Below are positions 3,571-54,064 of a stretch of DNA of 64,000 nt, piece by piece. The translations under genes and the position numbers were made by a program. How positions within the stretch are numbered: position 1 is the stretch's first letter; each line of letters starts with the position of its first letter. The stretch is from positions 152,246 through 216,245 of the forward strand of contig CAZRPY010000001.1 of assembly GCA_964602245.1 (NCBI GenBank), in the 5' to 3' direction. Origin of the DNA: an uncultured Methanosarcinales archaeon (lineage in GTDB: Archaea > Nanobdellota > Nanobdellia > Woesearchaeales > JACPIF01). The notes under the pieces were generated by a model. It was not told where the DNA came from. It ran no database searches and saw only the letters and a list, made by a program, of their open reading frames with translations.

Positions 3571-4484
3571 TTGTTGTATTCCTCTATACCTTTTATGATA
3601 GAAATTGAAAAATCTGAGGGTATTTTATGATAATTCTGATTTGCAATATTTCCTAATTCCAAGTAGATTGCAAAATCTTGATCTTTTAGGATATATCTTG
3701 GATCATTTGGCTCTACTCTATTTGTATCTATTGGAATAATTACATAGCTATCAACATTAACTCTTTCCATCATCTCGTTAATAATGAAACAGCTAACAGT
3801 AAGTGCTTCTTTTGTATTTCTGGAATTATGAGAGATATAAGCTTTAATATGATTGCTAGGAAGGTTGATATTGTTAATATTTAAAGCTAATAAGAACTTA
3901 TCAATTTGCAGCTGAGAAGACGGTATGTAATTAACACTTCCTTTAAGTCCATCTGAGATTTTTTCCAATTCTTTATACTCGTCTGAATCTTTTTTAGCCG
4001 CTGAATGGAGAATTATTGGTTGTGTAATTTTCCTAAAATTTTGTTCTTTATCGCATTCAAACTTATTTATAGCAAAAGTGTCATAGTCTATGTAAATATT
4101 CTTACCTTGCTTATTAATTGCAAAATATAATGGATTTTCTAGATTAATATTTTTAGGATTAATGTCATTTTCTTTTTGAGTTACAAAATAATAAATTCCT
4201 GGAGTAAGATCTCTGGCTTTTGTGGAGATTTCTACTTTGTTATTGTTTATGTTTATCCTATAGTTATAGAGGTCATTAAATTCTACATATGCATTTCCTC
4301 TCATTCCAGATAAAGCATCTATTGCTAAACCGATCTCTTTTGCTATTTCTTGTTTATAATGAATCTCATTACTTGCATAATCCTGCGCTTCATTTATAAA
4401 AAGCCAACCTACAAATATAGCTAGCACTATCTCTGCTACAACTATAACAGGATATTCTGTGCCTGTTTCTCCTCTTTTATTCAT
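3567..4484 (-). CDS. Type IV pilin-like protein with class III signal peptide
   Basis: The N-terminus is MNKRG|ETGTEYPVIVVAEIVLAIFVGWLFI. Confidence 0.55.
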   Translation of the reverse strand: MNKRGETGTEYPVIVVAEIVLAIFVGWLFINEAQDYASNEIHYKQEIAKEIGLAIDALSGMRGNAYVEFNDLYNYRININNNKVEISTKARDLTPGIYYFVTQKENDINPKNINLENPLYFAINKQGKNIYIDYDTFAINKFECDKEQNFRKITQPIILHSAAKKDSDEYKELEKISDGLKGSVNYIPSSQLQIDKFLLALNINNINLPSNHIKAYISHNSRNTKEALTVSCFIINEMMERVNVDSYVIIPIDTNRVEPNDPRYILKDQDFAIYLELGNIANQNYHKIPSDFSISIIKGIEEYNK

Positions 4485-7779: not shown

Positions 7780-7846
7780 AAGTTTATTACTTAAGAACTT
7801 TGTATATAAGCCTTTCTAAAGCTAGGCTTCAGTAAAAATAAGTTTC

Positions 7847-7965
7847 GTTTTGCCATCGGTTCGCATTTTGCTGTTTCTTATGATGTTGACTTTCCCCGTA
7901 AGGGACTTCCCCCTTGTCAAAGCTAAGTTGCCTTAGAAGAATGCTCGCAAAATTGATGGCAAAAC
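7847..7965 (+). ncRNA. Candidate structured ncRNA or structured repeat element, family copy 1 of 3
   Basis: The terminal inverted repeat is gttttgccatc / gatggcaaaac. The conserved strands are ggttcgcatt and gaatgctcgcaaaatt. The internal hairpin is gttgac-tttcccc-GTAA-ggg-acttccccc-tgtcaa. A TATA-like tgtatataa lies at 7801-7809 and the run ttatttttatc lies downstream. The strand was assigned from the GNRA loop and TATA orientation. Confidence 0.45.
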
Positions 7966-8109
7966 TTATTTTTATCAGAGCTTAAAGCTAAAAAGAGATT
8001 TTATCGCTAAATAAGATAACTAAAGAAATAATAAGTATAAGAATAAAGGAGCTTACTAAAATAACTGATAAAGAAATACCTTGAGCTTTAATGCTACTCA
8101 TATTAGCTA

Positions 8110-11196: not shown

Positions 11197-14100
11197 TCAC
11201 TTTTTCCTCTTTTTTATTAAGATGTCTAATTTCTCAAATGAATTCTTGCTGGTTTTTAATTTTGGAACTTCTTTTTGAGCTTCCTTCTTTATCTCTGACT
11301 TCTTTTGCTCAGGCTTCTTAATCTCTGATATTTTCTCTTTACTTATCTCCTCTTCTTTTTTGCCTAGGCCAAAAATATCTAAGATACTACTTTTTGTCTT
11401 AAACTTCTCTTTCATCCTAAGCTCAAATAATTTATGTTTCTCCAGTTCTAACTGTGGTTTTTTAGTTGGCCTTAATTTAATTTCCTCCATTTTTTGATAT
11501 TGAGGCTGTTGAACTTTTGGTTTTGTTATTTGGAATTGGGGCAAACTTATTCTTTGAATTGATTTTAGTTTGTAGCCGTATTTTTTATATCCAAGAATTG
11601 CACCTGCAATAATTAAAATAAAGGCTAAGCTATATATTATATAGGGAAGAATTCTTGAGCTAGGGTGAGAATTCTTGTCTAAAGGATCTGTGCCTGCTAA
11701 TATTTCCACATTATCTCTATAGCCGTCATCGTCTGTGTCTGCTTTGAAAGGACCTGTTTTGGCTCTCTGTTCTTCAATATTATTTAGCTCATCTGTGTCA
11801 GTATCTTCTTCTCCGTCGTTTATACCATTATTATCTGAGTCTGGTAAAAGTTTATTTAAATTATGAAGGTCTTCCCACTCATTTGATAAGCCATCTCCAT
11901 CTATGTCTTCATCACAGATATCTCCAACGCCATCTTTATCCAAATCCTCTTGCTCAGGATTCTCTTCTTCAAGACAATTATCTCTTGAATCTGGAATGCC
12001 GTCTTCATCTTCATCTGGCTCCAGTAATACACACTTATTATGGATACAGTCTGCACCAATTGTGCAATCATCTTTAATATTGCATTGCCTACCTGCTTCA
12101 CACCTTAAAGGACAATAAATGCCACAATCTATGTCACCTTCGCCAGAATCAAGAACGTTATTTGAGCAAGGGCTGGGCTTTTTGCATACACCAAACTCAC
12201 AGTTGCCTGAGGAGCAATCTAAATTTTGGATGCATTTGGCTTCAAGGCTGCATTTATTTTGGCATGCGCTGCCACAATCTATGTCTGTTTCTTGGCCGTT
12301 TTTTATTCCATCATTACATGCTTCTTTTTTGCATTTCTTTGTTGATGGATGGCAAAAGCCAGAGCTACAATCAGAATTTTCTATGCATTTTGCATCTTCT
12401 TGGCAACCCTGGCATGAGCCACCGCAATCTATATCTGTTTCAGTTTGATCTTGTATATTGTTTGTGCAGTGGCTTGGCTTCTTTGAAATATCAATAGTAA
12501 CTCCATTACTTTCAAGTATTTTACTTGTCAAGCCAACTATATTTGTAGAATCTACTTTAAAGACATACTTTGTCTTATCAGTTAGATTGAGAGGCCTATT
12601 TGAGCTGTCTTTAGTAATTACTACAAATTCTCCACCTACTGTACTTTGGGTTTGGTTGATAATTGAGGATCTAGACGGCAGGGTTTCAAGGCTGTATCTG
12701 TAGTATTTAACCAAACTTTCATTTTCCTCTGCAAGCCATTTCACTCTTAGCCTGTCAGTTTCCCAAGTAAATTCTGGATCTTCTACTAGAGTGCTGCTAT
12801 CATTTACATATAACATTGCAGGGGGTGTTGTGTCAATTGTAAAAGCAATAGTAGCTATATTAGAAAAGACTCCTGCTACTATACATCTTGCATAATACGT
12901 ATGTGTTATTCCCTGCTGTAGATTTGCAACTGTTCTTTGATGCCTATAGCCAATTTCCCCAAAAGAATTTGAGATTGAATCTTGAGCTTGGCCATAATAG
13001 CATTGGGCTTTTTTATTTGTAGATATATCTAGGATTACATTTGATGTATTCGAATAACGAGGGGTATTAACCTGGATAGTTAAAGGCTCACTTTCATTGA
13101 TTTTGAAGGTAATAATTGAGGTATTGGATAACAAACCTGCTTCATTCTCACAGGAAACAAAATAAGTATATTCTTGCTTTGCTCTTGTAACAGTTAAATT
13201 TTGGCTATGGACCTTTTGATAATTTTCCTTATCTGGGAAAAAATTAGGCATTTCAGGATAGATTTTCTTTGAATCATCATATCTGCAAATAGTGTTGTCA
13301 TCTGTCTGAACTTTAAGCACTGTTTTTAGATCTGATTCTATTATTATTTCTGGTTGTGCAAAAGCTGCCAGAATAATAGGTGGTGTTTTGTCTATAGCAA
13401 CTTTAAACTCCTTTTCTATAACTCCCCAGACACCATCATCACATTTTACAAATAAAGCATGGTCTTTTTGATCGCCTTCTGGTATATCCTTAAAATTGTT
13501 AATTCTGTGAATTAAGCCTCCTGTTGCAGAGAAGTCTTTCATATTCTCAAAAATTGTTCCAGGCAAATCCATGATATATTTGCATTTGGCATCATTATCA
13601 GTGCCTATTGTTATGTTAAATACAGATTCCTTAGAAACTCCAGTTTTTGGGATTAACATAGTAATAACCGTTGGGACAGCATTTACTATAAAGCTAAAAC
13701 TGCCATTAACAGAATTTCCAGCATAATCAGTTGCCTTGACAAAGACTGATTTTAAGCCATCGCTAAGGTTTAGCTTTATTTGATGAAATCTATTATCAAG
13801 AGTAGTAAAATTGTCCTTTAAGTCAGATGTGAGTCCAGTAACTATAACATTATTCAGGTCAACTTCCTTAGTGAAGTTTAATGTTAAAACAAAGTTTGTA
13901 GATTTTATAGTAATATTATTCGGAGAGCCTGTAAACTTTGGTGGATTATTGTCAATATTAATTGTTATTACCCTTGGAGATTTCATAAATCTTCCAAAAT
14001 TGTTCCTTGCCATAATAGTAAGGTTATATTGGCCATCTGGCAATGGAGAGTTTGGAATAAAAGAATGGATAGTATTATTCTCGAAAACTTGTTGAGTAAG

Positions 14101-26042: not shown

Positions 26043-26399
26043 GTTTTAAAATACTAATATATTAAATTGGATAAAGGAGTTATGTCTTTTTTACTTTTTC
26101 CTTACTAAAGGTCTTAAAATCGGAATATCTCTATTTATGTTATTAAGATTTTGTATATTAGATAATTTTTTGTGTATATTTCATTATACCTAACAATACG
26201 GCAATATTATATTTTAGATGAGTAGGAATATAACTCGTTGATAAAGATTATTATAAGTTTATTAACGCTATATAATTGCTTTATAAGCCTTAATACATAG
26301 GAAGAGAAGGGGGTATATAAATCTGGATATATGTATTTAAAAACAAAAGTATTTATAAAGGATTTATAAATACCATTTAAATTATGCTGGGGTGGGTAG

Positions 26400-26960
26400 A
26401 TGGCTAAAAAGCAGCAAAGGACTCAGAAAGAGATTAAAGTGGTAAATATTGTGGTTTCTACTTCTTTAAAGCATGATATTCCATTAGAAAAGATGGCTGC
26501 AACATTAAGCAATACAGAATACAATCCTGAGCAATTCCCAGGGCTTGTAATAAGGATAAAGGAGCCAAAGACTTCTGCTTTAATCTTTAGCTCTGGCAAG
26601 ATAGTATGCACAGGAGCTAGGTCAATGGATAAGGTTCATGAGTCTATAAACAAGATAATTAAAAGCCTTGAGAAAATAAAGGTAAAAATAACTATAAAGC
26701 CTGAGGTTAAAATCCAGAATATTGTTGCTTCTGGCAGTGTTGGAATGGATTTAAACCTTAACACTTTGGCTATGAAACTAGATAACACTGAATATGAGCC
26801 TGAGCAGTTTCCAGGACTAGTTTATAAGCTTGATGAGGCTAAGGCAACATTCCTTCTATTCAGCAATGGTAAGGTTGTTTGCACTGGAACTAAGAGCGAG
26901 AAAGAGGTTAGCCAGGCTTTAGATAAGTTAATTATTAATCTAAAGAAAGTTGGAGCTTAG
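26400..26960 (+). CDS. tbp: TATA-box binding protein
   Basis: Two direct repeats of the TBP fold are present (PGLVIRIKEPKTSALIFSSGKIVCTGA and PGLVYKLDEAKATFLLFSNGKVVCTG). It is 186 aa. Confidence 0.95.
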   Translation: MAKKQQRTQKEIKVVNIVVSTSLKHDIPLEKMAATLSNTEYNPEQFPGLVIRIKEPKTSALIFSSGKIVCTGARSMDKVHESINKIIKSLEKIKVKITIKPEVKIQNIVASGSVGMDLNLNTLAMKLDNTEYEPEQFPGLVYKLDEAKATFLLFSNGKVVCTGTKSEKEVSQALDKLIINLKKVGA

Positions 26961-45069: not shown

Positions 45070-45250
45070 AAGAATAAGCTAATTAGCAAAATTAAATTGG
45101 TGCAATATGCTCGAGGAAGAAGTGAACACCATGAGAGCTTAGGCTATGATCAATAGGAGTAACTGCTGAGAGCATGCAAAACCAATATTCCGATAGAAAA
45201 TGCACTTAGCCAAACATACTAAAAAATCATAGATTTTTTGTCGTTCGGCT

Positions 45251-50255: not shown

Positions 50256-51332
50256 TTATCTTGTTACTTCAAAGCTTTTAACCCTAGCAAGAAGCTCTTT
50301 AGCCTTTTTATTTTTTTCAAAGTGTTTTCTTACTGGTTCAATTAACTGGTTAATATAGAATGCTACAGTATTCTTTAAATCAATTGGATGCAAGTTACCT
50401 TTAGAATAAACTCTGACAAGATCATTATAGTTATGAAACTCTAAGTTTCCACCAAATTTTTCAGCTCTTTCTATCGTAATTGAGTTGAATTTTTCAAAAA
50501 GTATGTATTTGCAATATTCCAAGATAGGGTTGTCCTCTACTTGTTTTTCTGGACAATAGGCTTTAGCGATCTTTTCCTTGACCTCTTTCTCGGAATCTGT
50601 CATAAAAATGGCAGTTTCTGGCTTGGATTTAGACATTTTGAGGTCAATTGTTCTTTCAATAGCACTCTTTTCTTTACTAGCAGGCTTGCCAAGGCCCATT
50701 AACATATGGTGGCTGACTATCACAGGTTTCCAATATCCAAGTTTTTCTCCAAGTTCCCTAGCTAAAACATTAACTTTCCTTTGATCCATGCCTAGCTGGC
50801 AAATATCAGCTTTTAGATGGAATATGTCAGCTGCTTGCATACAAGGATACAATATTTGAGAGGCTTGCTGTACTTCAGACTCTTGTCTGCCCATTATCTG
50901 CCCAGTTCTTATTATCCTCTGTATAGTAGAATTTCTTGCTATCTGCATTACTTTCTTCCAATAATCCATACTGTTTACTACATCACTTGCCCTTACAAAT
51001 TCTACCTTATCAACATTCATTCCAGACACTTTCCAAACCTCAACAAGATAATCGCTGCATATTTGTATTTTTTCTAGATCACCGCCTAACTTGTTATTGG
51101 CCCAAGCGTGCCAGTCAGCTGCATACATCTTGAAATGGATGCCTGCTTTTACTAGTTTATTGATATTTATAGCCCTAAGAATGCCTTGAGCAATATGAAT
51201 ATTACCAGAAGGCTCAAAACCATCATATGCTATTGGATGAGATTTAGTCTCTATTAAAGTTTTTAGCTCATCTTCTGTAATTATCTCTTCACCTACCTGC
51301 TTTATCAGCTCTAATTTTGTATTTATATCCAT
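50256..51332 (-). CDS. tyrS: Tyrosyl-tRNA synthetase (archaeal type)
   Basis: It has a HIGH-region variant (EPSGNIHIAQ), KMSKS, and a C-terminus (KAYCP...NPILE...EKFGGNLEF...LHPIDLKNTVA) that matches archaeal TyrRS. Confidence 0.85.
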   Translation of the reverse strand: MDINTKLELIKQVGEEIITEDELKTLIETKSHPIAYDGFEPSGNIHIAQGILRAININKLVKAGIHFKMYAADWHAWANNKLGGDLEKIQICSDYLVEVWKVSGMNVDKVEFVRASDVVNSMDYWKKVMQIARNSTIQRIIRTGQIMGRQESEVQQASQILYPCMQAADIFHLKADICQLGMDQRKVNVLARELGEKLGYWKPVIVSHHMLMGLGKPASKEKSAIERTIDLKMSKSKPETAIFMTDSEKEVKEKIAKAYCPEKQVEDNPILEYCKYILFEKFNSITIERAEKFGGNLEFHNYNDLVRVYSKGNLHPIDLKNTVAFYINQLIEPVRKHFEKNKKAKELLARVKSFEVTR

Positions 51333-51405
51333 AAAACTAAGCTTAATTTATTCTTTTAAAAAGGTATCGTAAATTTAGGCTCTGTCATAAATCTCGATTT
51401 GCTCG

Positions 51406-51525
51406 GGGTTAGGTCGGTTCGCATTTTGATGTGAAAACTGTTAAGTTGACATCCCCGTAAGGGACTTCCCCCTGTCAACTGTAATTTTTGTATATTGGAG
51501 AATGCTCACAAAAATGACCTAACCC
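51406..51525 (+). ncRNA. Candidate structured ncRNA or structured repeat element, family copy 2 of 3
   Basis: The closing helix is gggttaggtc / gacctaaccc. The conserved strands are ggttcgcatt and gaatgctcacaaaaat. The internal helix gttgaca/tgtcaac encloses cccGTAAggg. A TATA-like ttttaaaaa lies about 45 nt upstream and the run ctttattta lies downstream. Confidence 0.5.
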
Positions 51526-51552
51526 TTTATTTAGGACAGAGCCGTAAAAGAA

Positions 51553-51581
51553 CACTGGTCACTGGACAGACGCACGTAAGG
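51553..51581 (+). promoter_or_regulatory. Second copy of the motif cactggtcactggaca-N4-cacgtaagg, followed by tatataaag upstream of the cas4-like gene
   Basis: It matches 26974-27002 at 16 of 16 positions, and the following cacgtRagg also matches. Confidence 0.4.
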
Positions 51582-51611
51582 TATATAAAGTAAATTGTTT
51601 TAATTTATGAT

Positions 51612-52472
51612 ATGATAACTGTATCTATGCTCTCTACATATCTATATTGCTCTAGAAAGCTGTACTTACAAGAAGTGCTTAAGCTAGAGGAACCTGAAAG
51701 AGAAGATGCAGTCATAGGCAGTATTAGGCATGAAACCTATGATCTAATAAATAAAAATGAAATGAAAATTGTTACAAGCATACAAAGAAAGGTGCCAAGA
51801 GAAGAATTGCAAGATTTATATAAGGAATATTATTCAGAGCATTTAAGAAATGCTATTAGAGCTAATAAAGATAGGTTAAGGACTTTAGTAATTAATTCTG
51901 GAGAGATTTTTAAGAGGCTATGGCCTTTAGTATTGGAGGAAAGCATTACAAGAGCTAATAGTATTTTTGACTTTATTGAGACACACCTTATTTTTGGAGA
52001 TAAACTTTGGGAAATGCTCACTCCAAAAATAGTTTCTGAGTTTAAGATAATATCTGCTAAACTTGAGCTTAAGGGCATAATAGATCAAGTAGAGCACTGG
52101 CAAACTGGTTTAGTTCCTATTGAGATTAAGACAGGAAACGCCCCATTAGAAGGAATATGGTCTGGGCATAAAATCCAATTAATAGCCTATGCAATGCTAC
52201 TTGAGGATTATTATAGCAAGCCAGTAAAAGAGGGATTTGTTGTTTACCTTGGATCAAAAGAGAAAAGGCATTTAGCCATAAATCCTTTTATGAGATATGA
52301 ATTGAAAGAGCTTATAGGCCAAGTAAAGACAGTCTTGACAAGCAAGGAGCTTCCAGATTTTACAACATCTAAAAAGAAGTGTGAGAAATGTGGGCTTAGA
52401 GATAGATGTTATAATAAAGAATTTATGGATAATACCATGAATAATCTCATAGAACTGTCACAAACTATATAG
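51612..52472 (+). CDS. Cas4-like / RecB-family PD-(D/E)xK nuclease with a 4-Cys Fe-S cluster signature; no CRISPR array or other cas genes nearby
   Basis: It has an N-terminal Cys (YLYCSRKLYLQ), the nuclease motifs IIDQVEH...VPIEIKTGN and QLIAYAML, and a C-terminal CEKCGLRDRC. Confidence 0.65.
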   Translation: MITVSMLSTYLYCSRKLYLQEVLKLEEPEREDAVIGSIRHETYDLINKNEMKIVTSIQRKVPREELQDLYKEYYSEHLRNAIRANKDRLRTLVINSGEIFKRLWPLVLEESITRANSIFDFIETHLIFGDKLWEMLTPKIVSEFKIISAKLELKGIIDQVEHWQTGLVPIEIKTGNAPLEGIWSGHKIQLIAYAMLLEDYYSKPVKEGFVVYLGSKEKRHLAINPFMRYELKELIGQVKTVLTSKELPDFTTSKKKCEKCGLRDRCYNKEFMDNTMNNLIELSQTI

Positions 52473-52552
52473 TGGTATATTTTTAAACCAGTTTATACAT
52501 TCTTTATAGAAACATTTAAATAAAGAAAATCATAGATTTTCTAATTTAAATG

Positions 52553-52671
52553 TCCGAAAATGCTTACATTTTCGATACAAAGGGACTTTGTCCCTAGTCT
52601 GGGAAATTAAAATTTCCGATACAACGAAAACCATTGGTTTTCGAGTCTCGAATTACGTTGTAATTCGATAC
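52553..52671. repeat. Array of five different perfect palindromes with alternating conserved 3-prime flanks (GATAC / AGTCT)
   Basis: The palindromes in order are: ccgaaaatg-ctta-cattttcg; ggga-ctttg-tccc; ggaaatt-aa-aatttcc; cgaaaacca-ttggttttcg; cgaattac-gtt-gtaattcg. They are followed alternately by (c)gatac and agtct. Confidence 0.6.
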
Positions 52672-52729
52672 ATTTAAATATTACTTACTACTAGATTTAG
52701 AATAGACTTTTGAATTAAGGAGTGATAAA

Positions 52730-53035
52730 ATGCCAACAACTAAAGAAGAAATGCCAAAAATGATGCAGGAAGGCCAAGAGGCTGACAAGAAGTTCTCTAA
52801 GCAATTAATAGGCAAGACAGTTGTTTCCAAGGCTGGAAAAAGGTTTGGGGAGGTAGGAGATATAATTTTTGAGGCTAAATCTGGAGAGCTAATACATATG
52901 GTATTAAGCAATCCCACTTCTTATACAGAAAAGCTAGAACTGGAGAAAGACAAGGATGGACATATTCTGATACCATTTAGTTCTGTAATAGCTATGGGAG
53001 ATTTTATGGTTATATCTGAAGAGGATATTATTTAA
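52730..53035 (+). CDS. PRC-barrel domain protein
   Basis: It is 101 aa with a GKRFGEVGDIIFEAKSGELIHMVL core. An aaggagtga RBS lies upstream. Confidence 0.6.
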   Translation: MPTTKEEMPKMMQEGQEADKKFSKQLIGKTVVSKAGKRFGEVGDIIFEAKSGELIHMVLSNPTSYTEKLELEKDKDGHILIPFSSVIAMGDFMVISEEDII

Positions 53036-53107
53036 TTGGCATTATTTTGATTGTTCTCTTTATATACTGCGCAAAACTATTTAAAGCAATATAAATTCTT
53101 TCAATCT

Positions 53108-54064
53108 ATGGAAAGTGCTTTGTGGACAGAGAAATATAGGCCTAAAGAATTTAATGAAATAAAGGGGCAAGTAGAAATAATTAAGAGAGTGAAGGCCTTT
53201 GTTGAAAAGAAAAATATGCCTCACCTGCTATTTACCGGACCTGCTGGAACAGGTAAGACCAGCCTTTCTATTGTAATAGCAAAAAAATTGTTTGAAGAGC
53301 AGTGGAGGCAGAACTTTTTAGAGCTTAACGCGTCAGACGAGAGAGGCATAGATGTTATTAGAAATAAAGTTAAAGATTTTGCAAGAACTAAGCCAATAGG
53401 TAATGTGCCTTTTAAGATAATTTATCTGGATGAATGCGATGCATTAACAAGAGATGCACAACAGGCTTTAAGAAGGACGATGGAAAATTATACAGCTACT
53501 ACTAGATTTATTCTTTCTGCAAATTATTCTTCAAAGATAATTGAACCAATACAGAGCAGATGCGCAGTGTTCAGGTTTAAGCATCTAGATAAGAAAGATG
53601 TTTACGAGATTATAGATAAGATAGCAATTAACGAGGATTTTCATATAACAGAAACTGCAAAAGAGGCTTTATTTGAGGTGACAGAAGGTGATCTGAGGAA
53701 ATTAGAGAATATACTTCAGAGCTCAGCATCTATATCAAATAAAATTGACGAAAATATGATTTATGCGATTGCAAATACAGCTAAGCCTAAGGATATAATT
53801 GAGATATTAAAATTAGCATTAAAAAATGATTTTATGGCCGCTAAGACAAAATTGCTCGATGTTATGCTGACTAATGGACTTTCAGGGGCTGATATTATTA
53901 AACAAATACAGAAAGAAATCTTAAATTTGCCAATAGAGACAAAAGATAAAATGTCTTTAATAGACAAATGCGGGGAGATAGAATTTAGGATGTCAGAGGG
54001 TGCAGACGAGTTTATACAACTAGAAGCTCTTTTAAGCCAATTTGCACTAATAGGAAGCAAATAG
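53108..54064 (+). CDS. rfcS: Replication factor C small subunit
   Basis: It has Walker A (LLFTGPAGTGKTS), DECD and the SRC motif. The track ORF starts at 53051, and the start is likely the internal MESALWTEKYRP. Confidence 0.9.
   Translation: MESALWTEKYRPKEFNEIKGQVEIIKRVKAFVEKKNMPHLLFTGPAGTGKTSLSIVIAKKLFEEQWRQNFLELNASDERGIDVIRNKVKDFARTKPIGNVPFKIIYLDECDALTRDAQQALRRTMENYTATTRFILSANYSSKIIEPIQSRCAVFRFKHLDKKDVYEIIDKIAINEDFHITETAKEALFEVTEGDLRKLENILQSSASISNKIDENMIYAIANTAKPKDIIEILKLALKNDFMAAKTKLLDVMLTNGLSGADIIKQIQKEILNLPIETKDKMSLIDKCGEIEFRMSEGADEFIQLEALLSQFALIGSK

Follow-up and report, generated by a model that had tools for sequence, protein, structure and literature searches.

The locus examined here raises a simple question: why does a row of short, perfectly paired hairpins stand directly in front of the gene for a PRC-barrel protein in an archaeal genome? 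It lies in a 64,000-nt stretch of DNA (hereafter the window; contig CAZRPY010000001.1, positions 152,246 to 216,245; G+C content 32.6%) from the Woesearchaeota/Nanoarchaeota group (DPANN), where the 257-bp spacer between the stop codon of a Cas4-like nuclease gene (52472) and the ATG of the PRC-barrel gene (52730) houses all of the hairpins. The array is real and statistically solid. As to its nature, we would give an even chance to the reading that it is a cluster, resembling bacterial interspersed mosaic elements (BIMEs), of an undescribed Woesearchaeal double-hairpin element, set in a duplicated promoter of the PRC-barrel gene made up of a TATA box and the element recognized by transcription factor B (TFB). 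In archaea this TFB-recognition element (BRE) is placed directly 5′ of the TATA box.

Organization of the hairpin array

Direct reading, a repeat finder and our own inverted-repeat scan all returned five perfect hairpins in 52555–52668 (H1–H5), the number given in the initial annotation of the window, which had overlooked a sixth (H0) upstream. The hairpins, the repeats that they form and the promoter elements around them are as follows; R1 is a covariance model of related elements presented below.

52524–52542: hairpin H0, AGAAAATC ata GATTTTCT, perfect; Hb-type; aligns to the second hairpin of model R1
52555–52574: hairpin H1, CGAAAATG ctta CATTTTCG, 8 bp; class A (Ha-type); flanks TGTC and ATACA; aligns to the first R1 hairpin
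52581–52595: hairpin H2, AGGGAC ttt GTCCCT, 6 bp; class B; AGTCT (52596–52600) next
52602–52617: hairpin H3, GGAAATT aa AATTTCC, 7 bp; class A; GATACA (52618–52623) next
52625–52643: hairpin H4, CGAAAACCA t TGGTTTTCG, 9 bp, effectively 8 bp and a 3-nt loop (CGAAAACC att GGTTTTCG); class B; AGTCT (52644–52648) next
52648–52668: hairpin H5, TCGAATTAC gtt GTAATTCGA, 9 bp, also read as (T)CGAATTAC gtt GTAATTCG(A); class A; adjoins the promoter
52571–52663: two tandem periods of a two-hairpin unit, P1 (52571–52614) and P2 (52615–52663), from global alignment
52512–52553: palindrome P_A (inverted repeat I1), 42 nt, consisting of TATA1, H0 and the inverted TATA2 (ATTTAAATGT, 52544–52553)
52512–52521, + strand: promoter copy 1 (TATA1), left copy of the 10-bp direct repeat ACATTTAAAT, with the ancestral upstream context of the PRC promoter
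52666–52679, + strand: putative working promoter of the PRC gene, BRE-like CGATAC and TATA box ATTTAAAT (52672–52679)

The stems measure 6–9 bp rather than the 4–9 bp originally proposed. All five differ literally, as had been claimed, but they are related: each aligns to the consensus nnTCnnGAAAATCATAGATTTTCGATnCTn, and two classes of hairpin alternate along the array, class A comprising H1, H3 and H5 and class B comprising H0, H2 and H4. H4 is similar to hairpin Hb of L161 (TCAGAAACC ctc GGTTTCTGA); here and below, L-numbers denote fetched loci, all of which were centred on a PRC gene. The punctuation between hairpins follows the alternation described earlier, with GATAC after H1, H3 and H5 (52574, 52618 and 52667) and AGTCT after H2 and H4 (52596 and 52644). 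AGTCT is an imperfect inverse of GATAC, and since GATAC and GTCT are imperfect complements, H3 and H5 extend to 12 bp with 1–2 mismatches, H3 through the imperfect outer helix GTCTG/GATAC and H5 through GTCT/ATAC (one mismatch). GATAC is also the sequence just 5′ of the PRC TATA box, in the BRE position (CGATAC-ATTTAAAT), where relatives carry CGAAAC, CGCAAC or CGATAA.

P1 and P2 reach a global alignment score of 29, compared with 10.3 ± 5.4 in shuffles (p ~0.001), and the array amounts to ~2.5–3 copies of a ~46-nt two-hairpin unit. The stems have diverged too far for Tandem Repeats Finder (TRF) to detect this repeat. As many as half of the stem positions vary from unit to unit, with no mismatch in ~47 stem pairs and with near-constant linkers; such perfect stems could be explained by selection for pairing or, alternatively, by templated copying between arms. 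With palindromes that are diverged copies of one unit and punctuation that is specific to the array, the earlier picture of an inverse of clustered regularly interspaced short palindromic repeats (CRISPR), in which constant punctuation would separate variable palindromes, had to be abandoned.

Comparison with chance expectation

In dinucleotide shuffles of 52500–52699, at least five stems of at least 7 bp occurred in 0.04% of 5000 trials, which disposes of the concern, raised with the initial annotation, that shuffled sequence might be equally rich in palindromes. The array is the densest hairpin cluster within the window: its region holds 6–7 of the 21 perfect hairpins found across 45 intergenic regions, each other region having 0–3, and most of those elsewhere are TATA-box or T-run palindromes. 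The array is predicted to fold at −46.2 kcal/mol, where shuffles average −22.2 ± 3.5 kcal/mol; the z score is −7 for the + strand, and −6.3 for the − strand. In a minimum free energy scan of all loci (9812 windows) it came within the first ten. CGATACA occurs three times in the window, always within the array; GATAC as such is not enriched in the window (88 observed, 76.5 ± 8.5 expected). Independent assemblies of other samples (L001–L004) contain the array base for base, which excludes an assembly artefact; samples with this genotype are ERZ27284375-80 and SRR8863434.

A family of double-hairpin elements in related genomes

Loci fetched via two further PRC homologues contain elements with the consensus gtg-TCAGArATGC-nnn-GCATyTCTGA-gcaYRc-TCAGAAAyyC-nnn-GrrTTTCTGA-cac. 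We defined the family from L161, L164, L078 and L049 by two adjacent hairpins, each of ~9–10 bp and with an invariant base, that are joined by a short linker and enclosed by a bulged outer helix of 3 bp. The element lies 5′ of the PRC gene in L161 and in L164–L169. Second copies are found 3′ of the PRC gene in L161, in opposite orientation, and 3′ of the gene for the replication factor C (RFC) small subunit in L164/L208, and there are more copies in L078 and L049. Differences between the orthologous copies of L161 and L164 are compensated changes; across six foreign copies 94.7% of cells pair and 8 of the 23 pairs have changed on both sides, figures that are biased upward because these copies were chosen for being perfect hairpins.

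An insertion of 110 bp carrying a double hairpin (L164/L208, 2820–2930) is absent from three assemblies coding for the same PRC protein (L165, L167 and L168). It consists, in this order, of a G+C-rich block (GACAGCCCCCGCGGCGTG), the double hairpin, CACTTGAGTGG and an A+T-rich tail, and an imperfect AT-rich motif of ~8–10 bp marks its junctions (GGAATAAT on the left, GAAAATAAAT on the right). In L007 (2937–3054; JACPIF010000008.1), 130 nt after the PRC gene, the perfect hairpins AAAATGC, CTCGGAAAT and GTGGTTTAG are enclosed by a 12-bp stem (TCAGAATTCCAC/GTGGAATTCTGA), with GCATG next and the contig end 7 nt further on. At −51.8 kcal/mol (z = −9.6), this element ranked first in the energy scan as the strongest structural outlier. 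The related contigs L089–L092 break ~50 nt 3′ of the PRC gene.

Covariance model R1 was built from the foreign copies alone, with no sequence of the window. It matches the window at 52513–52583 on the − strand with 30.7 bits (E = 1e-4 in 0.5 Mb and 1.3e-5 in the window, filters off), at 52614–52674 on the − strand with 21.6 bits and at 52592–52655 on the + strand with 21.5 bits (E = 2e-3 for both), and finds nothing below E = 0.4 in the rest of the window; L022, L046 and L007 are matched as well. In the alignment, the flanks GTAT...(G)ACAT of the array, which are its GATAC and GTC punctuation read from the opposite strand, fall on the outer helix GUG...(G)CAC of the model. A pattern search with the double-hairpin linker gave 36 matches in IMG/VR, no double hairpin among them.

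Some hairpins outside the array deserve mention here. The hairpin AAAAAATC ata GATTTTTT at 45221–45239, between convergent genes and 12 nt past the stop codon of the one on the minus strand, is one compensated base pair apart from H0, with an identical loop, and matches R1 partially (11.5 bits); it looks like a bidirectional T-run terminator. Hairpins with ATAC/GTC flanks outside the array, sought in view of the punctuation proposed at first, occur at chance rate (2 seen, 2.7 expected), and the apparent flank match of the 45221 hairpin was therefore dropped. L159, from the same genome, has a perfect 9-bp hairpin of TCAGA type (TCAGAAATC tac GATTTCTGA, 12800–12820) 2 kb before the window start, in the 5′ portion of the RadA-coding sequence; its R1 match (E = 0.02) may be due to chance. 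Another sub-type of hairpin pair is present twice in L052, at 2250–2288 (CTTGCGAA..TTCGCAAG-tc-CGCCAAG..CTTGGCG-acacc) and at 3895–3938 (CTTTGAAAAGC..GCTTTTCAAAG-tc-CGCCAAT..ATTGGCG-acacc), with linker and tail constant and stems variable.

The duplicated promoter and its turnover

In ~70 related loci the promoter motif cRAAAC-ATTTAAATA lies ~58–63 nt 5′ of the PRC ATG. The spacer in the window holds ATTTAAAT three times, as TATA1 (52514), TATA2 (52544, inverted) and TATA3 (52672). TATA1 (52514–52521) keeps the ancestral upstream context TATAGAAAC, and TATA3 keeps the ancestral downstream context ATTACTTACTAC, which is common to L006, L086 and L087. The 10-mer ACATTTAAAT, composed of the BRE end and the TATA box, has only two sites in the window (52512, and 52670 for the right copy at 52670–52679), and these bracket the whole hairpin block. 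L006 and L007 have a single unbroken promoter, ATAGAAAC/G-ATTTAAAT-AT.., at the same place; taken together with the two copies of ACATTTAAAT, this means that 52522–52669 has the character of DNA inserted into the promoter or of a promoter duplication. Palindrome P_A (CATTTAAATAAAGAAAATC-nnn-GATTTTCTAATTTAAATG) is a hairpin between two facing TATA boxes.

Among 80 species-level relatives (GTDB genomes), none has the array before its PRC gene, and the conservation of flank motifs on which the initial annotation had made its interpretation depend was not found in these loci. The nearest available relatives are other species, not strains; they share 89–90% DNA identity in the PRC gene and 79–84% in the flanking genes, and lack the array. 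By blastn there is no second copy in the window or in the loci fetched before that search, except the same-species L001–L004, and the array is unmatched in phages and plasmids. The pattern of its punctuation (CGATACAA-N-AGTCT-N-CGATACA) is without a match in IMG/VR. Metagenomes gave 65, in none of which hairpins separate the motifs, and all 65 were rejected as chance or as unrelated hairpin-less repeats.

What relatives have at this place varies. L087 has one unit, TGTCTGAGAATGCCACCAATTCCGATACA, that no longer pairs and, judging by its arms, looks like a chimera of the H1 left arm with the right arm of H3 or H5; joining arms of different units would thus lose pairing. In L086 and L088 an unrelated filler of 180 bp lies between inverted copies of promoter-proximal sequence (GTATCGAA...TTCGAAAC); considered as a structured RNA, the L086 filler gave z = −2.4 only and no Rfam match. 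L009 and L047 show the order TATA1-H0-TATA2-H1-BRE-TATA3 as in the window, P_A included, with H1 alone of H1–H5, the window being ~93 nt longer. Hairpins homologous to H1 adjoin the BRE and TATA box in L009, L047, L022 and L049, in shorter versions in the latter two, and L022 has an additional hairpin pair within the 5′ untranslated region (UTR). Two perfect hairpins ending 4–5 nt 5′ of the TATA box occur in L024, L035 and L066 (stems CGAAAATC, CGGAAAA, CGGAAAC and CGAATCGC).

P_A is 94–95% identical to a palindrome located 5′ of the promoter of the tyrosyl-tRNA synthetase (TyrRS) gene in L023 (665–705) and L015 (982–1017), a different locus in other species, where it sits between the gene for a small membrane protein and the TyrRS promoter. 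The P_A pattern has no match in IMG/VR. Other G+C-rich structured inserts were seen 5′ of the PRC promoter in L015 (2296–2425), L016 (1–130), L013, L051 and L052, an example from L015 and L016 being GCGAGTGAA..TTCACTCGC; none of them has an Rfam or tRNA match. The slot 5′ of the PRC promoter seems to be a hot spot for structured DNA.

This turnover admits an explanation that needs no element family, mobility or function, namely a neutral by-product of palindrome instability at one locus, in which an ancestral inverted duplicate of promoter-proximal DNA (TATA2-GT-CGAAAATG..CATTTTCG-ATAC-TATA3) would have grown from its centre by replication slippage and template switching. It is in keeping with the same inverted promoter-proximal arms around another 110-bp centre in L086, the collapsed chimeric unit of L087, punctuation specific to the array, and a function that must be dispensable given array-less relatives; perfect stems are expected of recent templated events (PMC8794818). 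Left unexplained are the R1 matches, the finding that other species have P_A with 95% identity at another locus, and the compensatory changes between orthologous L161 and L164 copies, and similar double hairpins occur at further intergenic sites and in species lacking this promoter architecture (the second copies of L161 and L164; L078, L049, L052 and L007). We consider this explanation unlikely.

The position of the hairpins at a fixed distance from the BRE and TATA box in several species, together with half-sites xGAAA/TTTCx in common, could also suggest an operator or upstream-activating array, as had been proposed, with each palindrome a double-stranded DNA site for a dimeric Lrp/Ptr2-type regulator of the PRC gene. 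There is precedent in archaeal regulators of the Lrp family (Ptr2, Ss-LrpB), which use tandem palindromes just 5′ of promoters. The spacing here is inconstant: GAAA..TTTC spans 17, 18, 14, 17 and 17 nt in the window and 13–19 nt in relatives, H2 is without a half-site, and centre-to-centre distances of 21.5–31.5 nt are unphased. A half-site spacing that varies from 13 to 19 nt makes a rigid dimeric regulator unlikely. Moreover, the inner stem positions are fully complementary though unit-specific, which a protein reading half-sites would not need, and the same hairpins also stand 3′ of genes, between convergent ones and within a 5′ UTR. We judge an operator array very unlikely.

Predicted folding and TATA1 raise another alternative, that the hairpins act as RNA. 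If TATA1, with its good BRE (AGAAAC), fires, the five hairpins would make up the first portion of a long PRC mRNA leader, or a separate RNA of ~130 nt closed by a UUUAAAUGU/ACAUUUAAA stem. Such an RNA would modulate expression, or its constant unpaired linkers GAUACAA and AGUCU would capture a protein, much as sponge RNAs do with reiterated motifs. TATA1 fits the family promoter consensus cRAAAC-ATTTAAAT, a start ~25 nt past it would fall at ~52545, just 5′ of H1, and folding predicts a closed multiloop with five hairpins (z = −7); TATA1 and one hairpin are retained in L009 and L047, and the hairpin pair of L022 lies inside the 5′ UTR. On the other side, the nearest relatives are without the array, its linkers are not conserved, the closing stem is merely two inverted TATA boxes, and both strands fold equally well. 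By G-U asymmetry, promoter-proximal hairpins in 34 loci divide 17 to 17 between the strands, and this lack of strand bias means that there is no RNA-specific signature. No part of the window reached the gathering score of any Rfam 15 family; when E values up to 10 were admitted, three weak matches appeared in 51300–52760 (14.8–26.7 bits, gathering scores 45–54), the sole one inside the array being SNORD52 (14.8 bits vs. 45). A structured leader or small RNA is in our view rather improbable, and the independent non-coding RNA (ncRNA) suggested initially, having no Rfam family, no conservation and no strand bias, is not borne out. A 15-codon open reading frame (ORF) from 52550 (MSENAYIFDTKGLCP) was rejected as a gene: its first codons recur in L087 and L009 through DNA conservation, its ends differ, and it is absent in L047.

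Comparison with known systems

Further searches concerned other known functions. No tRNA was found. No bacterial-type terminator is predicted in 52300–52900, T4 runs lying within the 3′ arms and not after them, in agreement with the original remark that the array is unlike a simple terminator, and bacterial promoter prediction at the array was uninformative. ACA follows H1, H3 and H5 as in H/ACA guide RNAs, but the stems are short and perfect and have no internal loop, and there is no Rfam match. A replication origin finds no backing, as skew tracks the gene strand with no extremum at 52.5 kb and direct repeats are lacking.

The regular spacing of short units beside a Cas4-family gene is the only feature that the locus shares with CRISPR arrays; it has diverged palindromic units, no direct repeats and no spacers. 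We detected no direct-repeat family in 52450–52750, and TRF reported nothing at a score of at least 30. A CRISPR-like or other guide array tied to the Cas4-like gene would be recommended by that neighbour and by the regular ~23-nt period, nothing more. No other cas genes adjoin, many relatives have the Cas4-like gene before the PRC gene without the array, and double hairpins occur in L161–L169, where the Cas4-like gene is absent. The lack of repeats and the decoupling from the Cas4-like gene refute a guide-type system, to which we assign a negligible probability. The array is neither of guide type nor an inverse CRISPR, nor does it represent a conserved RNA gene, and it shows no sign of a dedicated RNA gene, operator array or guide system.

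Among the functions offered at the outset, that of a recombination site, taken here as a mobile repeat, comes closest to the reading that we favour, and overall the initial interpretation is partly supported. The relevant bacterial repeats are the repetitive extragenic palindromic (REP) sequences, their doublets forming hairpins (REPINs) and BIMEs, in which regularly spaced REPs alternate in orientation and linker motif (PMC2817692). The REP doublet is a mobile unit (PMC3116915), and REP dimers and clusters can carry differing stems (PMC3733652). The array agrees with them in its short palindromic units (15–21 bp plus flanks, all intergenic) and in the alternation of orientation and linkers, with A and B classes, GATACAA and AGTCT, and two ~46-nt periods. 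More broadly, the likeness extends to palindromic units of 20–40 bp that are intergenic, mostly after genes, and arranged as singletons, dimers and clusters, as well as to the presence or absence of copies between related genomes. One REP super-family combines a CGTC/TGTC tag with stems of 8–9 bp and loops of 4–5 nt (PMC3733652). H1 likewise reads TGTC, 8 bp and 4 nt, but TGTC stands 5′ of H1 only, the others having AGTCT or ATACAA, so that a conserved terminal tag is missing in the array; CGTC-tagged REPs also typically have A-T in the first two stem positions, where C-G is found here. The host is archaeal (DPANN), the stems are far more diverged with only stem base and linker constant, and a duplicated archaeal BRE/TATA promoter surrounds the cluster. 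Classic REPs exceed 100 copies per genome, whereas copy number here is low wherever countable.

Miniature inverted-repeat transposable elements (MITEs) and the palindrome-associated transposable elements (PATEs) of archaea derived from IS200/IS605 insertion sequences are likewise small and non-coding, with hairpin-rich ends, insertion polymorphism and empty sites in relatives. Their short flanking duplications may have counterparts here, which measure 10 bp in the array, where the repeated ACATTTAAAT is single in L006 and L007 and is itself the TATA box, and ~8–10 bp in L164. In contrast to MITEs and PATEs, there are no clear terminal inverted repeats save the TATA box (ATTTAAATGT/ACATTTAAAT) and no near-identical copies, and the unit is only ~50–110 nt. 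IS200/IS605 insertion produces no target duplication, and we know of no parent insertion sequence for the double-hairpin element.

Template switching in replication has been documented to create and maintain perfect hairpins (PMC8794818). It would explain why paralogous units have perfect but different stems, and how compensatory changes arise with no need for stepwise selection; being a mutational mechanism and not an element, it alone leaves multi-locus recurrence and constant linkers unexplained. In archaea, single perfect inverted repeats are enriched ~50 nt before start codons and 50–80 nt after stop codons, where they peak (PMC13155455). Here there are six in a row with repeat-unit structure, and H0 lies 52 nt past the stop codon of the Cas4-like gene.

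Possible origin and function

According to the favoured reading, the BIME-like cluster would comprise ~3 head-to-tail copies of the double-hairpin element over 52512–52679, GATAC and GTC(T) being the two sides of an imperfect outer helix that corresponds to the GUG..(G)CAC helix of the foreign copies. The family may spread or expand via its hairpins, with single-strand or replication-associated insertion, unequal recombination between similar arms and template switching as candidate routes; spread of this kind would also account for stems that are perfect yet differ. We hypothesize that RNA transcribed past the end of the Cas4-like gene, or started at the upstream promoter copy, folds into the row of hairpins, which could end, insulate or stabilize the readthrough transcript before the working promoter, similar to bacterial REP and BIME clusters.

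Several points weigh against this reading. The array scores 21–31 bits with R1, far below the 55–86 bits of core members, and we regard it for this reason as a distant or degenerate member of the family, locally amplified; a model of two A/T-rich hairpins also partly rewards any hairpin pair, and the covariation of the foreign copies is inflated by their selection. In 68 kb of this genome there are one cluster and one partial hairpin (45221), the 4 kb added beyond the window containing no further array, one relative has 1–2 elements per 14–20 kb, and in relatives two copies lie within 2.4–14.5 kb. As all sampled loci are PRC-centred, the evidence for dispersal extends no further than 10 kb from the PRC gene in either direction. 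The 10-bp "target duplication" is a palindromic TATA box and could be produced by promoter duplication, which makes the latter as good a reading as insertion. No transposase was found among the five neighbouring proteins scanned against Pfam, no genome-wide search for transposases, including REP-associated tyrosine transposases (RAYTs, of Y1/HUH type), having been made. The proposed role as terminator, insulator or stabilizer is the most economical functional guess that we can offer, and archaeal termination relies on U-tracts and aCPSF1 rather than hairpins (PMC8716108).

More tentatively, and with some doubt, we speculate that Woesearchaeota host undescribed mobile elements of ~50–110 nt with two hairpins, in which base and linker are constant and the stem tops co-vary freely. 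Such elements would insert at or beside palindromic TATA boxes with ~10-bp duplications, multiply promoter boxes and form BIME-like clusters, their stems being kept perfect by hairpin-templated copying. They would be the archaeal equivalent of REPINs with their RAYTs, moved by some enzyme of the host genome or another source.

REP, REPIN and BIME repeats are a classic feature of bacterial genomes, affecting mRNA stability, termination and genome plasticity, and our literature search returned no account of repeats of this type in DPANN archaea. If the family is confirmed genome-wide, very small archaeal genomes also carry hairpin-based mini-elements, which could serve as markers of recent insertion or deletion between strains and would raise the question of the mobilizing enzyme. 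Elements in or beside the BRE and TATA box create tandem and inverted promoter copies, here before a conserved PRC-barrel gene. In annotation, such arrays should not be confused with CRISPR-like loci or ncRNA genes.

Neighbouring genes and other structured elements

The genes near the array encode an archaeal TyrRS, a stand-alone Cas4-like nuclease, the PRC-barrel protein and the RFC small subunit. Features bordering the array are as follows.

51612–52472, + strand: stand-alone Cas4-like PD-(D/E)XK nuclease gene (Pfam Cas_Cas4, 2.9e-18; PDDEXK_1, 1.8e-17)
52717–52724, + strand: Shine-Dalgarno-like sequence AAGGAGTG
52730–53035, + strand: PRC-barrel gene, 101 aa (Pfam PRC, 3e-08)

The PRC-barrel protein has 3374 homologues, mostly from Woesearchaeota/Nanoarchaeota, including all named ones. 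Small PRC-barrel proteins are involved in archaeal cell division (bioRxiv 10.1101/2023.03.28.534520; 10.1101/2023.03.28.534543), and the gene is of this cell-division (CdpB) type. The RFC small subunit probably starts at ATG 53108 and not at TTG 53051 as given by the ORF finder (53051–53110); the ATG has its own promoter ~30 nt upstream (GCAAAAC-TATTTAAAG), which is kept in L086 and L087, and gene callers differ in this respect from assembly to assembly.

Two paralogous G+C-rich structured elements of ~165 nt are located at 51378–51543 and ~7825–7985. They have the blocks TCGGTTCGCATTTTG, GTTGAC.T.CCCGTAAGGGACTTCCCCCT(T)GTCAA and AGAATGCTC.CAAAA(A)TGA in common, and their long closing helix co-varies (GGGGTTAGGTC/GACCTAACCC vs. 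GTTTTGCCATC/GATGGCAAAAC). With a fold of −60 kcal/mol (z = −4.3) and no Rfam or tRNA match, they are candidates for an unannotated ncRNA family or a small mobile structured element. In L086, L007 and L089 the spacer between the TyrRS and Cas4-like genes measures just 43–50 bp, so the element is missing there.

Another TATA-hairpin-TATA arrangement is present at 26336–26381, 25 nt before the ATG of a + strand gene at 26400. It consists of TTTAAA, a perfect 11-bp hairpin (GTATTTATAAA gga TTTATAAATAC) and C-ATTTAAAT, with ATAC before the TATA box, as in the array.

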